A stretch of DNA of 6,801 bases from a virus (Duplodnaviria > Heunggongvirae > Uroviricota > Caudoviricetes): the IMG/VR virus record IMGVR_UViG_2547132272_000022. One strand, 5' to 3'. Below the pieces are notes generated by a model. The model was not told the origin of the DNA. It worked only from the letters and a program-made list of their open reading frames with translations, and did not search any database. The position numbers and the translations under genes are program-made. This document shows, piece by piece, positions 487 to 6,801 of the stretch (the first letter of the stretch is position 1; the number at the start of each line of letters is the position of its first letter).

Positions 487-1023
487 TTACTCGTCCAGCA
501 GAATCACTTTGCCGATATACGGCAGATGGCGGTAACGCTGTGCGTAATCAATACCGTAACCCACCACAAACTCATCCGGGATCGAGAAACCGATAAATTC
601 TACCGGGACGTTCACTTCACGGCGGGACGGTTTATCCAGCAGCGTACAAATCGCCAGCGACTTCGGTTCGCGCAGGCTTAAGATTTCACGCACTTTCGAC
701 AGTGTATTACCCGAGTCGATGATATCTTCAACAATCAGCACGTCCTTGCCACGGATATCTTCATCCAGATCTTTGAGGATTTTCACATCACGGGTGGTGG
801 ACATGCCGCTACCGTAGCTGGAGGCGGTCATAAAGTCGACTTCATGAGATACCTGAACTTCACGGCACAGGTCCGCCATAAACATAAATGAGCCACGCAG
901 CAGGCCTACCAGCACCATATCGCTGCCGCTGTCTTTGTAACGCTCAGTAATCTGACGACCCAGTTCGGCGATACGCGCTTTAATCTCCGCTTCGGGGATC
1001 ATTACTTCTACATAATGTTTCAT
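487..1023 (-). CDS. hpt: Hypoxanthine phosphoribosyltransferase
   Basis: 178-aa ORF, near-identical to E. coli Hpt as recalled. It carries the PRPP-binding motif [16 protein letters not shown] at 1021..1023 (minus strand), stop TAA at 487..489. Confidence 0.96.
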
Positions 1024-1217
1024 CTATCAAATAACCAATTGATTATTAATGAAATAACCATCATTTTTCATGCTTAAAAAAACAATATTGATACACCGAT
1101 TGATACACAAACAGAGAACGGCACAAAAAAAATGACAGAAAACAAGAGAACAACAAATTGAGTCGGGATTGTACCCGATCCCATAAAAGCTCACTAACGC
1201 TTTTAATGTATCTTTGT

Positions 1218-1285: not shown

Positions 1286-1534
1286 ATGCGCACACAGGTT
1301 GTATTGCAAAAATGGGGTAACAGCATTGCCCTTCGACTAACGGGAAACCTTAAAACCGTTCCGGGTTTTTCAGTGGGTGATATCGTCAACGTTGAAATTA
1401 GTGAAAAGGGGCTTTTTGTAGAAAAGCCTGCACGCCGTCGCCTGAGTGAAGCCGAATTACTCGCCGGGATAACGCCAGTTACAGCGCACGCGGACGAAAT
1501 TGCCACCCCATTCAATGAGGAGGTTGATTACTGA
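1286..1534 (+). CDS. MazE/PemI/ChpS-family antitoxin (AbrB/SpoVT-type fold)
   Basis: 82-aa ORF with RBS caggag 8 nt upstream of the ATG. The N-terminal KWGNS...R signature and overall pattern resemble MazE and ChpS. Its TGA stop overlaps the start of the next gene (TGATG at 1532..1536). Confidence 0.85.
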   Translation: MRTQVVLQKWGNSIALRLTGNLKTVPGFSVGDIVNVEISEKGLFVEKPARRRLSEAELLAGITPVTAHADEIATPFNEEVDY

Positions 1535-1878
1535 TGTTTGTACCTAAGCGTGGTGATATTTGCTGGCTGGATTTTGAGCCGCAGAAAGGAAAAGAGATCG
1601 GAAAGTATCGCCCGGCACTCATACTATCCCATGAGCAATATAACCGACTCACCGGGCTTGTCATATGCTGCCCCATAAGTACGAGCATACGAAATGCTCC
1701 CACAGAAGTTCCGGTAACAAATCTGGACGCCCCCAGCGTGGTAGCAACCACACTCATTCAAACCCTTGACTGGCGTCAGCGGAAAGCGCGCTTAATCACA
1801 GAGGCAGAAGATGGGGTATTTAATGATGTGCTTGAAAGAGTCATTACCCTGATTGGTGGAGAGCATCTGCTTAAGTAA
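1534..1878 (+). CDS. MazF/PemK/ChpB-family toxin (putative sequence-specific endoribonuclease)
   Basis: 114-aa ORF with RBS gaggagg 9 nt upstream. The translation aligns by eye with E. coli MazF (P.RGDI.W.DF.P.KG.E....RPALILS...YN..TG...CP.ST), and start/stop coupling with the upstream antitoxin is typical of type II TA operons. Confidence 0.88.
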   Translation: MFVPKRGDICWLDFEPQKGKEIGKYRPALILSHEQYNRLTGLVICCPISTSIRNAPTEVPVTNLDAPSVVATTLIQTLDWRQRKARLITEAEDGVFNDVLERVITLIGGEHLLK

Positions 1879-1881
1879 AAG

Positions 1882-1899
1882 GAGGGCTGAGAAGCCCTC
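1882..1899. terminator. Hairpin between the convergent toxin gene and gene B; possible bidirectional terminator
   Basis: Perfect 7-bp stem gagggct (1882..1888) / agccctc (1893..1899) with loop gaga, 4 nt after the toxin stop and 22 nt after the gene B stop. Flanking U-tracts are weak. Confidence 0.4.
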
Positions 1900-1921: not shown

Positions 1922-3193
1922 CTATTCTTTCCAGTCAATCCCATCCAGTAAGCACCCTGCCTCATATTGCCCCACCACCCAGTCAAGGTTACAGGACTCA
2001 TAGAACGCGAGGCGATTATACTGAGGCTCGTTTTTTACCAGGCCACGAACGGAACCACGCTGCCAGTACAGACACAGATTGGCAAGAGGTGTGATCAATA
2101 CAGCATTGTCCGGGAAAAATGGAACGGTTACAGCCGGGAGATTCCCCAGAACGGGATTTTTAATGATTTCCTCGTTAAGCAAAATTTCCTGATTCATCTG
2201 CGATGGATCAAGACGGTTTATCAAAGGCCATTGTTTACGGACCAGCGTATTGTGACTGCATACGGCCACAATGCCTTCCTGCCACTGTTCATCAATCATG
2301 GATTGCCAGGCATCCAGAACGAGCGCATCTATCGTATGGTGTGTACCGCGTGTATTACTTTTCGGTGATGAAACAGAAAGGCCGCTGATAACCCTTCCCG
2401 CCGCTTCATTTCGAAACTTCTGCAACCAGCCCACGCCGCAATCGTCACGCCCCGGATATGTTTTAGGGTCAGATTCGGCGGCATAATGTGTGCCGTTAAA
2501 ACCAATCTGAATTAAATCCAGCCATTTCCGGCGTTCAAAAGCGGCCCGCGCACTTCCTTCAAGGCCGTTTGCGGATGCGTGAGCATCGGCATTGTCGTAG
2601 CTCAACGCAAAATCAAAATTAACCTGCTCGCAGCGGTAGCCCCTTGAAACCAGTGAATGCGCCTGTAGTGGCGAACGGCGCTCGTGAGGTGGCGATGTAC
2701 GTGCCAACGGCCCCGAAGCGTCTACCAGCACAACCCGACCTGATATATCCGTAACAGGCACGGGCGTTATTTCAGCAAGGAAATTTGCCTGCCATCCACT
2801 GGCAAGCGTTGCACTCTGGCGGGGAACGGGTTCAACTTCTGACGAATAGCGCGCAGTGTCACCGGAAAAGTGCAAATCCTTCGGATGTTTTCCGGTTATC
2901 GACTCGATAGCGCAATTGAAAACCATCTGAGCCTGTTGATTTCGTTGTGATACAACAGAATCAGCAGTGCAATTATAACGCTCAATGCCGTCGTTATTAC
3001 CCCCACCGCTTGCAGTATGCAGGGTGTGAAGCTCAAGCTCACGCTCCAGTTTTTGATATTCATTGTCCAGCGCGCGACGCGTCTCATCGCTTATGCTTGC
3101 TGTGTTTGCTTTCAGGCGATTCCGGGACATTAATCCCCTGAGTCGGCTCACTATATCAGCGCCGTGCAAATGTGGAGTATTCAGACCGCCCAT
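1922..3193 (-). CDS. Hypothetical protein B (423 aa), distal gene of the two-gene operon; function unknown
   Basis: Long uninterrupted minus-strand ORF. The ATG at 3191..3193 overlaps the TAA stop of gene A by one base (TAATG), a classic translational-coupling arrangement. I recognise no Walker, nuclease, HEPN, reverse-transcriptase or nucleotidyltransferase motif by eye. An in-frame ATG further upstream (3334) would add 47 aa but overlaps gene A by 142 nt. Confidence 0.7.
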   Translation of the reverse strand: MGGLNTPHLHGADIVSRLRGLMSRNRLKANTASISDETRRALDNEYQKLERELELHTLHTASGGGNNDGIERYNCTADSVVSQRNQQAQMVFNCAIESITGKHPKDLHFSGDTARYSSEVEPVPRQSATLASGWQANFLAEITPVPVTDISGRVVLVDASGPLARTSPPHERRSPLQAHSLVSRGYRCEQVNFDFALSYDNADAHASANGLEGSARAAFERRKWLDLIQIGFNGTHYAAESDPKTYPGRDDCGVGWLQKFRNEAAGRVISGLSVSSPKSNTRGTHHTIDALVLDAWQSMIDEQWQEGIVAVCSHNTLVRKQWPLINRLDPSQMNQEILLNEEIIKNPVLGNLPAVTVPFFPDNAVLITPLANLCLYWQRGSVRGLVKNEPQYNRLAFYESCNLDWVVGQYEAGCLLDGIDWKE

Positions 3194-3903
3194 TACTGCC
3201 ACCCCCGGCAGAGTTCTCTGCCCTCCGCAAGGTCGCGCATTTTTTCTGGATTCTGTCGCGCCGCGCTCCATTGTACAGGTGAAGGGGCGTTCCTGATTGC
3301 GCGGCTTACCGAATCCGGGAGTTTCTCCGGGCAATAACGCAGCGGGCTGGAGGTGTCGCTTTCGGTATCGTTAATCCGGCCGCGAATCATCCCGACACTT
3401 TCAGCAGTATCTGTCGCTTTCAGTGTTTCGCATATTTTCTTTTCTGCGTTATACAGCGGCTGGCCAAGCAGCTCACATAAACCACGAATCAATAACAGAG
3501 CAGGGGTCAGCTCGTTAATCAGTTCGGGAAGTGCTTTTGCAAATATCTCTGCCCGCAACTTATTATCAATGCTTTCGTAAGCACAACCAGCCTCTGCCGC
3601 GTTATAACGACACTCCAGTAGCCTGATGCGCGCCTCATCATGCAGCACCCGCAGACGCTCAAGATTTTCTCGCGCCACACCCGCCTGAATGGATAATTTC
3701 GCGGAGGCTTCCGTTTTTACGCCCAGCGCAGACAGGATTGAGTTCTGCCAGTCACGATCGAGAGATTCCAGCTCCCCTTTCGTCTGTTCGATAGTTGCTT
3801 CCAGATTGGTGATTAATGATTCCTGTTCACTGAGTTTTGCCATGGCTGCATCAAACTGTGCTTTACATACCTGATGTTCGGCGCTTGCCTGAGTTATATC
3901 CAT
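3193..3903 (-). CDS. Hypothetical protein A (236 aa), predicted helical and coiled-coil-rich N-terminal half; function unknown
   Basis: Minus-strand ORF with RBS caggag 6 nt upstream of the ATG at 3901..3903. The N-terminal ~100 residues are rich in E, L, A, K and R in a heptad-like pattern. No catalytic motif recognised. Confidence 0.72.
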   Translation of the reverse strand: MDITQASAEHQVCKAQFDAAMAKLSEQESLITNLEATIEQTKGELESLDRDWQNSILSALGVKTEASAKLSIQAGVARENLERLRVLHDEARIRLLECRYNAAEAGCAYESIDNKLRAEIFAKALPELINELTPALLLIRGLCELLGQPLYNAEKKICETLKATDTAESVGMIRGRINDTESDTSSPLRYCPEKLPDSVSRAIRNAPSPVQWSAARQNPEKMRDLAEGRELCRGWQ

Positions 3904-4068
3904 TATTTGCTCCTGTAATACATTTTTTTACTTACGCCGATTTTTTCCATATTGCGTAATACATTCCAGCCGATTTTGTTCTCGTAATACGCTCACAATA
4001 CTGTTGTATTACGCTTTCTTATATCGCGGGTGTTAAATCCCGGCATAAACAATCAGGGAGGCAACACG
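3904..4068. promoter_or_regulatory. Divergent intergenic control region between gene A (-) and the small RHH-like gene (+), containing several copies of a CGTA-N-TACG palindromic motif
   Basis: GTAATAC occurs at 3915..3921, 3956..3962 and 3984..3990, and GTATTAC at 4006..4012. The copies at 3984 and 4006 form an inverted repeat. Promoters for both divergent units must lie here; exact -35/-10 boxes are not assigned. Confidence 0.4.
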
Positions 4069-4302
4069 ATGAAAAAACAAAAGAAAATGCGATGCGTATT
4101 ACGCTGTATTCGTATCCCGCACGAAATCGACCATAAAATAAATCAGATATGTCAGGACAGAGAGATGAACTACTCCCAGTGCGTCAGAATGTTTATCAGT
4201 CAGGGAATTAAGGCCGGGGAAACGCAGGAAGAAGACTGCAACGGGCGCAATGTAGCGGGGGATGTGTGGGCCTGGGCAAATGACCAGAACCACACGACGT
4301 AA
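4069..4302 (+). CDS. Small putative DNA-binding protein (77 aa), possibly ribbon-helix-helix type
   Basis: ATG at 4069 is preceded by a strong RBS agggagg (4055..4061). The N-terminus MKKQKKMRCVLRCIRIP (basic, then alternating hydrophobic residues) followed by two predicted helices fits an RHH/Arc-like pattern. This is my reading of the sequence, not a computed fold. The track ORF begins at 4030 but lacks an RBS there. Confidence 0.45.
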   Translation: MKKQKKMRCVLRCIRIPHEIDHKINQICQDREMNYSQCVRMFISQGIKAGETQEEDCNGRNVAGDVWAWANDQNHTT

Positions 4303-4535: not shown

Positions 4536-4897
4536 ATCACGCTCCTCTTACTGGTGTGAAATTTAACCTATTATATCTTCTGCCGCCCCCTCTGGCTGTA
4601 TCAAATAAACCCGCAGCAGTCGCCGCGTATTACGCACGGGCGCGCCGTTCCCATGCTCACTCGTCACATTCCCCGTATCAGTTCTCTCTTGCCGTAAGAA
4701 CGGCTCTGGCTGGCGATAAAACTAACCCGGTCGGGGCATTCCCGCAGCCTTTAGCGAAAATGTAATTTACCCCCTGAAACGCGTGCTGTTCCCCCGTCAC
4801 CTGCGCGCGAAAAACTCACCGTTTTTTGTGCACGCACGAAATCGCCCTCCGGGCGCGCCAGTACTGGGCCGGATGGGCAAAAAGTTACTCTAAAAAA

Positions 4898-4924
4898 TTG
4901 TGCAAATTTGTGCACTTTTGTGCA
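4898..4924. repeat. Three direct TTGTGCA repeats at an exact 10-bp period
   Basis: TTGTGCA at 4898..4904, 4908..4914 and 4918..4924, with a fourth TTGTGCAC at 4826..4833. The 10-bp spacing puts the copies on one helical face, as expected for cooperative protein binding. Confidence 0.6.
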
Positions 4925-5151
4925 GATGAACAATAGCGTCAAAAAGAGTGCTTTTGAGAGATTTTTTATGGCAACTGCGCCGCGTGTATTACGTTTTTTA
5001 CCATCCCCGCCGCGCATGTACATACTTCATTTTTCTGCCAAACAACAGGGCAACTCCCCGTGACTGACAGCCCCCAAAAAATCAATGATTGATGTTGCAT
5101 TTTTGTTAGAGGTCAGGCCAGTTGTTTTGGGGCTCTGCCTCATAATCCGGT

Positions 5152-5184
5152 GGGGGGTGCGCAAAGCGGTTACAACGGTTACAA
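5152..5184. repeat. Left arm of a 33-bp perfect inverted repeat
   Basis: ggggggtgcgcaaagcggttacaacggttacaa (5152..5184) is the exact reverse complement of 5433..5465. Confidence 0.9.
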
Positions 5185-5432
5185 CAGTCAAAAACACCAC
5201 TTAACAACATGATTTTAATGGATATTGTTTGTAACCGCTTTGCGGTTACACTGCGGTTACAACGGTTACAGGTTTAAAAAAGCACTTTATTATCAATCAA
5301 TTAAAAACTTAACCTGTAACCGCCTGTAACCTAACAAAACGGTTACATGTAACCGCGTTGTAACCGCTTTTGTAACTCATCCGACCAGTTATAATATATT
5401 GATATATAATACAAAAATAAGTAATTCTAAAT

Positions 5433-5468
5433 TTGTAACCGTTGTAACCGCTTTGCGCACCCCCCCCC
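5433..5468. repeat. Right arm of the 33-bp perfect inverted repeat, ending in a C9 homopolymer
   Basis: ttgtaaccgttgtaaccgctttgcgcac followed by nine C (5460..5468). The left arm has only six G, so the homopolymer is 3 nt longer on this side. Confidence 0.9.
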
Positions 5469-5722: not shown

Positions 5723-6724
5723 TTACTCTGCTGGTTCTTTTTGTTCAGTGAATGCTATGTTAGCTATCGGGTTAAACCTCATGGCATCTGCCAGATAGTC
5801 GGGAGAAAAATGCGCATAAGTCATCGTTTGCTGAATAGTGGCATGGCCCAGAATCCGTTGCAGGGTAACGATGTTTCCCCCGTTCATCATGAAATGCGTG
5901 GCGAACGTATGACGCATCACATGAGTCGCCTGCCCTTTTGGCAAATCAGGCTTCACCTCCTGGAGGATCTCGCGAAACCGGAGATAATCGACCTCGTACA
6001 GCGGCCCAGTTCGGCAGGTTTTAATCAGCGAGAGCACAGCATCAGACACCGGAACCGAACGGGACTTCCCGTTCTTGGTGTTGAAGAACGTCACGCGATT
6101 ACCGACGATATGCTCCCCGCGTAATTCCGTCGCCTCACCCCACCGCGCCCCCGTGGAGAGACACAGAATGGCGACACGACGCGCATCACCTTCGAGTCGC
6201 TCAAGAAGCCGCTCAATCTCATCATCAGAAAGAAAGGCCATCTCTGTATTCTGAATTTTTAGCTTACGTATACTGCGCACGGGGTTCGGGTTGTGAAAGA
6301 CCCCTGCTTCAATCAACACCGTGAACATGGTAGACAGAACGCATAAGTCACGATTAATACTGGACGGCATTAATCCGGCCTGTAATTTCTCTGACCGATA
6401 CTCAAGCATAAATTTTCGCGTCATCTGGTTGGCGCGCGGATCTCCCATTTCACGAATCACTTTCTCCAGCCGGATCCTGTAGGTATCGCCGTAAGCCTGA
6501 TTACACCCGTCAAGCATCCACCATGTATCAAGCAACTCTGATAATCGCCGCCGATCAGCAGGTTTAGCTAGCCATGGGTTATTATGGAAATTCTGCAAAA
6601 CATATTGTTCGAACTTCTCTGCACTTCCTTTCCTGGTAAAAATTTTACGTATCCGTTTGCCGTATGTCCCTTGCGGCCTGATATCTAGCAACCATCTTCC
6701 ATCATCCATCTTTCTAATCGACAT
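5723..6724 (-). CDS. int: Tyrosine recombinase / phage integrase, P2 Int-like
   Basis: The translation aligns along its length with phage P2 integrase as I recall it (MSIRKMDDGRWLLDIRPQGTYGKRIR vs P2 MAIKKLDDGRYEVDIRPTGRNGKRIR; ILCLSTGARWGEA; catalytic HxxR in VMRHTFATHF and the Tyr region LQRILGHATIQQTMTYAHF). I place the start at ATG 6722..6724, which has RBS aaggagag 9 nt upstream and matches the P2 Int N-terminus. The track ORF extends 12 codons further to 6760 without an RBS. Confidence 0.93.
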   Translation of the reverse strand: MSIRKMDDGRWLLDIRPQGTYGKRIRKIFTRKGSAEKFEQYVLQNFHNNPWLAKPADRRRLSELLDTWWMLDGCNQAYGDTYRIRLEKVIREMGDPRANQMTRKFMLEYRSEKLQAGLMPSSINRDLCVLSTMFTVLIEAGVFHNPNPVRSIRKLKIQNTEMAFLSDDEIERLLERLEGDARRVAILCLSTGARWGEATELRGEHIVGNRVTFFNTKNGKSRSVPVSDAVLSLIKTCRTGPLYEVDYLRFREILQEVKPDLPKGQATHVMRHTFATHFMMNGGNIVTLQRILGHATIQQTMTYAHFSPDYLADAMRFNPIANIAFTEQKEPAE

Positions 6725-6801
6725 ACTTAAGATCTCTCCTTGTAACTGAATATCCGGCATTTCAGCACTTCCGGCTCTCTGGCCTCGGCTACTCCTTTTC
6801 C

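Follow-up and report, generated by a model that had tools for sequence, protein, structure and literature searches.

A conserved gene pair for a diverged P2-family capsid protein and a putative Sid-like scaffold in a probable P4-like satellite of P88-like phages

A satellite that follows the P4 paradigm has no shell protein of its own and reshapes the gpN capsid protein of its helper by means of Sid. The core set of P4-like elements comprises integrase, Psu, Delta, Sid, AlpA, epsilon/ash and alpha (PMC13586616). The C-terminal helix of Sid touches the 'sir loop' of gpN (residues 183-224), and sir mutations in gpN lie at positions 184, 206, 207, 217 and 221, of which 184, 207 and 221 are named as direct Sid contacts (PMC7552001). 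Other satellites carry capsid genes: SaPIbov5 encodes Ccm, a capsid homolog with a delta domain which takes the pentamer positions in a T=4 shell (PMC8569155), and the phage-inducible chromosomal islands that form capsids (cf-PICIs) have 11 core components, including the head-tail adaptor, the head-tail connector and the large terminase (PMC10085698). The present analysis concerns a stretch of 6,801 nucleotides of viral DNA (IMG/VR record IMGVR_UViG_2547132272_000022, hereafter the window) and two of its genes, A and B, which are likely to be the late capsid-morphogenesis operon of a 13-kb P4-like integrative satellite of P88-like phages (Xuanwuvirus, P2 family). The pair is laid out as follows:

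3193..3903, minus strand: gene A, 236 aa, all-helical; a distant Sid-like protein (Sid/Psu fold) and putative external capsid scaffold or size determinant
1922..3193, minus strand: gene B, 423 aa; a diverged homolog of the P2-family (gpN-like, HK97-fold) major capsid protein; extended at its N-terminus by ~80 aa (two helices and a disordered linker)
3191..3195, minus strand: TAATG stop/start overlap coupling A to B, read directly from the sequence

The stop codon of A (TAA, 3195-3193) and the start codon of B (ATG, 3193-3191) have one base in common. An earlier interpretation of the window made from its letters only (the sequence-only reading) had described two co-oriented genes of this size joined by this overlap, and the sequence confirms it. 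A Shine-Dalgarno motif AGGAG can be read 8 nt 5' of A and a G-rich one before B. The junction is tight in six lineages, ranging from an 8-nt overlap to a 19-nt gap.

The sequence-only reading could place neither protein in a family. B, however, matches PF05125 (Phage_cap_P2, the P2-family major capsid protein) with E=2.5e-72 and 244.2 bits, passing the gathering cut-off of 27, over residues 132-419 and profile positions 38-327. It also matches PHROG 70 (major head protein, E=1e-76) and 7jw1_A, the P2 gpN of the P4 procapsid (E=1.2e-54), where residues 110-419 align to gpN 24-340 and the gpN core of the solved structure is covered over its full length. The RefSeq name for B is already major capsid protein. 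Against TIGR01551 it reaches 133.8 bits, under the NCBIfam equivalog cut-off of 219.65. Judged by these matches B is a member of the P2 capsid family and not an equivalog of canonical phage gpN. Like P2 gpN and P88 gp26 it belongs to this Pfam family and has the same core, and shared invariant residues are found across the alignment; unlike them it carries the extension of ~80 aa, has a 'sir loop' 7 residues shorter than that of gpN, lacks the gpN C-terminal tail and stands apart from portal, terminase and scaffold genes. No portal, terminase, scaffold-protease or small terminase gene was found beside B in the element or in related loci.

The identity of B to any phage capsid gene among 50,697 phage records does not exceed 39%, and is 35% to the P88 capsid protein. 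B falls in a separate clade of proteins of 390-497 aa in Escherichia, Salmonella, Klebsiella, Erwinia and Pectobacterium, scoring 269-387 bits, whereas canonical P2-type capsid proteins start near 200 bits. In a neighbour-joining tree this clade is monophyletic with respect to P2, P88, KSP20 and other phage capsid proteins, and from the sequences it is judged to be old and satellite-specific.

In the AlphaFold2 model of B (predicted local distance difference test score 72) the extension consists of helices 11-29 and 36-61 and a disordered linker (60-81), after which comes the gpN-like core; the secondary structure of the model agrees with that of the P2 capsid family. The extension has zero similarity to the P88 scaffold-protease. 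Two possible sources for it were considered and set aside, namely a gpO C-terminal scaffolding domain fused to B (E=1.1 for P2 gpO in BLASTP, a weak resemblance only) and fusion of the separate 78-aa open reading frame (ORF) of a distant locus, L017, to which it has no similarity. In the alignment with gpN the VEP motif is conserved, as SEVEP around residue 119 of B. The maturation cleavage of gpN, which we take to fall after residue 31, lies beside this motif, so that a helper protease could cut off the whole extension of B in the manner of a delta domain, and the extension may be a removable delta-like scaffolding domain. A homolog in Pectobacterium (L006 10001-11083) is called at 360 aa, without the conserved N-terminal helices; unless its start codon is mis-called, the extension would not be universal in the clade. 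There is also a predicted protein of 534 aa (P0012) in which Toprim domains are joined to a part of B at 98% identity, and this is probably a chimera of assembly or gene calling on a short-read contig.

A and B are a real and conserved pair. This follows from their full-length state in 56 of the 57 complete E. coli genomes that carry them (of 5,426), from the ratio of nonsynonymous to synonymous substitutions (dN/dS), at ~0.3 in A and 0.06-0.24 in B, whose capsid core has values of 0.04-0.13, and from the order of an A-like gene directly 5' of a capsid homolog, which recurs in four genera. Both genes are under purifying selection, and dN/dS shows a weaker constraint on the N-terminal extension of B than on its capsid core. 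Even A-like genes at 24-26% identity have a P2-family capsid gene after them, one exception being cut by a transposase. The identities of A and B co-vary across islands (r=0.94), with faster evolution in A. Adjacency of the two genes across genomes and their position in variable islands had been put forward as a check by the sequence-only reading; they are indeed adjacent in four genera, in mobile islands with a variable slot. That reading had likewise seen no enzymatic pattern in either protein, and scans with Pfam, PHROG, NCBIfam and PADLOC found no enzymatic or effector domain. Only in E. coli TK3046 (NZ_AP044762.1, hits H11 and H105) does the pair fall short of its full length; here the insertion sequence IS100 (IS21 family) lies under the window match and only positions 845-1982 of the A-B query align in one piece; B appears to be interrupted there.

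Protein A has no family annotation in the Pfam, PHROG and NCBIfam scans, and phmmer gave no match to Sid or to any other sequence of solved structure. The A-family profile recognises Sid weakly (E=0.22); when the A family is aligned to the Sid family with hhalign, the probability is 85.8% and E=5.4e-6 over ~100 collinear columns. The best-conserved part of the A family is the C-terminal end. Like P4 Sid, A is an all-helical protein of ~240 aa with a conserved C-terminal end, and it is predicted to be a distant member of the Sid/Psu fold, in which a long coiled-coil stem leads to short helices and then to a C-terminal helix. The sequence-only reading is supported in part: its speculative alternative, that A could be a helical scaffold-like protein of a phage satellite, agrees with the P4-like satellite and the Sid-like fold; the relation to Sid itself is remote. 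By analogy, the putative role of A would be an external cage on capsid hexamers, shifting the shell from T=7 to T=4.

Among 15 members of the A family, none matched PF07455 (Psu) at E up to 1, P4 Psu itself scoring 295 bits, and hhalign of a four-sequence A alignment (A1) against P4 Psu gave a probability of 0.05%. A gpO-type scaffold was also considered for A, which has no Phage_GPO or PHROG match. The fold search of BFVD with A returned generic helical matches only. A word-indexed search found near-identical E. coli proteins only, the wider homologs being reached by an exhaustive HMMER search. The IMG/VR matches for A are provirus predictions from isolate genomes and are uninformative on packaging.

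In the alignment to gpN, B is changed at the sir-mutation positions 184, 206, 207 and 221, and the P88 capsid protein retains M184, Y207, A217 and L221. Since the sir loop of B is shortened and altered and the P88 protein keeps the sir positions, it is suggested that A may be tuned to B.

The sequences around the pair point to its regulation. The features concerned are:

3974..3997, minus strand: putative activator box of an Ogr/Delta-dependent late promoter 5' of A, with TGT-N12-AGA and then ACAAAA
4353..4535, minus strand: Ogr/Delta-type zinc-finger late activator (PF04606, E=3e-11; 39% identical to P4 Delta in the N-terminal half of the latter)
4069..4302, plus strand: conserved ORF of 77 aa, antisense to the late genes and placed between ogr and A; it carries a ribbon-helix-helix-like motif LRxIRIPHELDxxI..YSxCV
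1882..1899, minus strand: predicted terminator-like hairpin between the convergent genes B and mazF (consensus scan)

The dyad box is the only strongly conserved block 5' of A-like genes. It has the exact form TGT-N12-ACA in two of the related loci (L002 and L010) and five of the six positions elsewhere; in the window the exact form is absent 5' of A and only the five-of-six version is present. The same box, TCTGGCCGTTTTCTTACAACAAAAG, is found in the late promoter region of P88. In the late promoters of P2 and in Psid of P4 such a dyad is the activator site for Ogr/Delta, and A-B is therefore probably a late operon. The 77-aa ORF aligns across six islands, with strand and position alike in all loci; its CopG/RelB matches are weak, under every family threshold, and it may regulate the divergent A-B promoter. 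The terminator-like hairpin lies 23 nt past the stop codon of B.

A second conserved non-coding sequence connects the element to a particular group of phages. No match to the P2/P4 cos site was found in the element, and the following block was recognised instead:

4771..4948, minus strand: putative cos packaging site of the P88 type, a non-coding block of ~180 bp 5' of ogr

It contains the 19-mer GGTGACGGGGGAACAGCAC at 4783-4801, four TGCACAA boxes (one at 4826-4832 and three at 4898-4924 with 10-bp spacing) and the invariant sequence GCGCGCAGGTGACGGGGGAACAGC. Of the 19-mer, 14 of the 19 bases match the P2 cohesive end GGCGAGGCGGGGAAAGCAC. The block is 70-80% identical across genera, while the A proteins are ~30% identical. 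With a non-coding site of Escherichia phage P88 and related phages (Xuanwuvirus, Peduoviridae) it shares 78-82% identity. The P88 counterpart, with which all elements of the block are shared, lies ~300 bp past the end of the portal gene, as cos does in P2. No Rfam family matched the window at E up to 1, and the conserved block thus corresponds to no known RNA. From these comparisons the block appears to be the cos site of the satellite, with P88-like phages as its helpers.

When cos plus portal is taken as the mark of a P88-like prophage, 1,091 of the 5,426 E. coli genomes (~20%) contain such prophages. E. coli JP538 and STEC379, candidates for strains with both the element and a P88-like prophage, have two cos-type sites each. 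At least one extra P88-type cos site is present in 39 of 56 satellite-bearing genomes against this 20% background (odds ratio 9, p=4e-15), a statistic which ignores strain kinship and in which the extra sites are scored as P88-type cos sequence only. Moreover the ratio of the length of the element to that of the P88 genome is 0.36, that of P4 to P2 being 0.35, and this fits the relationship of a T=4 to a T=7 shell.

A 90-aa 'hypothetical protein' is called by RefSeq over the cos-like block (4751-5023, minus strand). Such a call is missing in most related loci, with short hypothetical calls over the corresponding region in P88 and L003, and what is conserved across genera is the DNA; the 4751-5023 call is therefore probably spurious. 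Between the second integrase of the element and the cos block, in an AT-rich region (5157-5457, GC content 0.36-0.43), there are five copies of the 9-mer GGTTACAAC, three direct and two inverted. This 9-mer is not conserved at the equivalent position in other islands, and the copies could be origin iterons or recombinase arm sites.

The window runs from the 3' end of can through hpt into the inserted element, of which it contains these further features:

1000..1031, strand not assigned: left attachment repeat over the first hpt codons; its partner lies 12,990 bp away beside gcd, outside the window
1286..1878, plus strand: MazE/MazF-like type II toxin-antitoxin pair (Pfam, NCBIfam), terminal cargo of the element
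5723..6760, minus strand: second tyrosine recombinase (Int_N + Phage_integrase), 2 nt downstream of the primase-helicase gene

In L001, the closest complete genome, the insertion extends from hpt to gcd. The element is 12,990 bp long and is bounded by a 32-bp direct repeat (D3, L001 9000-9031 and 21990-22021). The start of hpt next to the element encodes MKHYVEVM and the distal remnant beside gcd encodes the native MKHTVEVM; the element has entered the 5' end of hpt and supplies a replacement start. A second repeat, of 24 bp (window 1085-1108), also flanks the element, with an offset which is not collinear with the first.

The order of the element is a P4-type integrase (Arm-DNA-bind_3 + Phage_integrase), a 351-aa protein of unknown function, AlpA, an Icd-like gene and small ORFs, then an 888-aa toprim primase-helicase, the second integrase of Int_N type and the non-coding region, and finally Ogr/Delta, the antisense 77-aa ORF, A, B and MazEF. 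A common order of integrase, AlpA, primase, variable slot, Ogr/Delta, small antisense ORF, A-like gene, long capsid homolog and element end is seen in Salmonella (same hpt site), Klebsiella (near the rpoD-dnaG region), Pectobacterium and two further E. coli lineages. The variable slot is occupied by HicAB, AIPR, DUF4238 or a second integrase. In strain ECCNB12-2 (L014) the same element, including MazEF, is found at tRNA-Arg with a different P4-type integrase. The element is therefore a mobile unit whose integration site follows the outer P4-type integrase, and MazEF, which moves with it to this site, is cargo of the satellite at its cos-distal end and not a chromosomal neighbour. The neighbours named in the sequence-only reading, a PemK/MazF toxin, an Ogr_Delta protein and an integrase, are thus present according to Pfam (the last with Int_N and Phage_integrase domains); what had been taken for a P2-type integrase beside the pair is an internal gene, the site-tracking P4-type enzyme lying outside the window. 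The second integrase is kept in the E. coli and Klebsiella islands and replaced by HicAB or AIPR in others, and a role in multimer resolution is possible.

With the late operon of P4 (sid-delta-psu; Sid in PDB 7JW1; PMC7552001) the element shares the size of a ~12-13-kb integrative satellite, an integrase of P4 type, AlpA, a primase-helicase and an activator of Ogr/Delta type, as well as a putative cos site copied from a P2-family helper and a probable late operon placed behind a helper-type activator box. Integrase, Phage_AlpA and Ogr_Delta, all of the P4-like core set, were each found with Pfam. Unlike P4, the element has only one gene for the Sid/Psu fold and lacks Psu, its Delta gene stands apart upstream, and the operon partner is a capsid homolog which is wholly missing from P4. 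Its cos site and promoter box match P88-type phages and not P2, and its replication protein is weakly similar to alpha (BLASTP E=2e-4 over short segments), with the same domain order of zinc ribbon, toprim and P-loop helicase. Psu is absent from every locus compared; Phage_ASH or Derepression domains were not detected in this copy and occur in relatives only (L004, L010 and L006).

With Ccm, B has in common that it is a satellite-encoded, diverged homolog of the HK97-fold capsid protein of the helper (24% identity for Ccm, 35% for B) with an extra N-terminal domain. Ccm redirects the helper capsid to a small T=4 shell, and B would be used likewise. The two differ in host phylum, helper family and satellite family, and Ccm acts by itself, while B has a Sid-like external scaffold coupled to it. 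Ccm is the closest functional precedent for B. Like the cf-PICIs the element encodes its own major capsid protein and does not rely wholly on that of the helper; unlike them, with their full head and packaging set, it has a capsid homolog and a scaffold-like protein only. No protease, terminase, portal or connector gene was found in the element. A distant lineage (L017 249-3028) has an A-like gene followed by the unrelated 78-aa ORF and a 350-aa capsid gene of canonical length, which branches at the base of the phage clade, with a small Terminase_5-domain ORF close by; this may be a differently equipped satellite.

Taken with the family assignments, the architecture of the element, the conservation and selection of its genes, the cos-like and promoter-like DNA and the co-occurrence of P88-type cos sites observed above, a likely course of events can be proposed for the A-B operon. 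Upon infection or induction of the helper an Ogr/Delta-type activator, from satellite or helper, would fire the helper-type late promoter 5' of A, and A and B would then be produced together through translational coupling. B would serve as a capsid-shell subunit of the gpN/HK97 type, and A, an elongated helical protein of the Sid fold, would bind the capsid hexamers from outside and force a small shell, probably T=4, which would admit the 13-kb genome of the satellite and shut out the 36-kb genome of the helper. The terminase, portal, protease and tails of the helper would package the DNA through the P88-type cos site of the satellite and finish the particle. In this course we infer the redirection of capsid size, the capsid protein that A would bind, B as the whole shell or, as with Ccm, a part of it, and the extension of B as a removable scaffolding domain.

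An alternative explanation is that the pair serves interference or defence first. B would be a dominant-negative 'poison' subunit which, with A, spoils or mis-sizes the capsids of incoming P2-family phages and protects the host population, transfer being secondary or absent. The divergence of B from every phage capsid protein can be read in this way, as can the changes at sir positions including 184, 207 and 221, the direct Sid contacts (positions from PMC7552001). Defence-type cargo (MazEF, HicAB, AIPR) is also present on the elements, and size redirection by P4 (PMC7552001) and by Ccm (PMC8569155) suppresses the helper as well. Nevertheless PADLOC, proposed as a check in the sequence-only reading, gave no meaningful defence-system match, with only a marginal 12.5-bit coiled-coil match of A (JetC) and none for B, and a conserved helper-type cos site together with the late promoter box in all islands is sensible only if the element itself is packaged. 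The data allow for an interference role, which probably goes together with transfer; alone it would leave the cos site and the late-promoter box unexplained, and as the primary function we regard it as unlikely.

It is far less probable that A and B are the functionless scaffold and capsid genes (O-N) left from a decayed P2-like prophage. B is a P2-family capsid homolog and A precedes it as O precedes N in P2, but A has no similarity to gpO (no Phage_GPO match and no sequence match of solved structure), the extension of B is unlike the P88 scaffold-protease, and both genes are intact in 56 of 57 genomes under purifying selection. In addition, the compact architecture without other morphogenesis genes is kept across genera, in a clade that is old and monophyletic. 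A two-gene anti-phage defence system unrelated to capsid assembly, the cargo favoured by the sequence-only reading from the integrase-bearing island, the adjacent toxin-antitoxin module and the missing family annotation of A, is equally improbable, being contradicted by the capsid homology of B (three libraries and a solved structure) and by the Sid-like fold of A; nor does either protein have an enzymatic or effector domain.

The capsid-morphogenesis operon of a P4-like satellite is thus the explanation we prefer, and a more specific form of it can be offered tentatively, with rather less than even confidence. These elements could be 'half capsid-forming' P4-like satellites, which make their own shell from B, with its removable delta-like domain, and a co-evolving Sid-like cage from A, and obtain only portal, protease, terminase and tails from P88-like helpers; A would be an unduplicated, ancestor-like form of Sid/Psu. 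If this is true, 'sir'-type mutations in the helper capsid could no longer stop size redirection.

No published description of a P4-like satellite with its own capsid gene was found in the literature searches and the P4-like surveys. The parts are known (a capsid protein of the gpN family, the Sid fold and the P4-like layout), and what appears to be new is their combination, together with the lineage of the helpers. Distinctive 'Type C' P4-like subfamilies which lack two core genes have been described in Salmonella and Escherichia (PMC10085698), and the A-B satellites may be these. For annotation, A could be renamed from 'hypothetical protein' and the gene call at 4751-5023 could be dropped.

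With one capsid homolog and one Sid-like gene the A-B satellites would be intermediate between P4 and the cf-PICIs, and their module would join two strategies, the external scaffold of P4 and the capsid homolog of the SaPIbov5 Ccm kind. The Sid/Psu fold would then not be confined to canonical P4 elements, a point that PMC7552001 leaves as an open question. P88-like phages, present as prophages in ~20% of complete E. coli genomes, are indicated as the helpers of a satellite lineage, and the A-B element may offer a tractable system for the escape of satellites from capsid-resistance mutations of their helpers.

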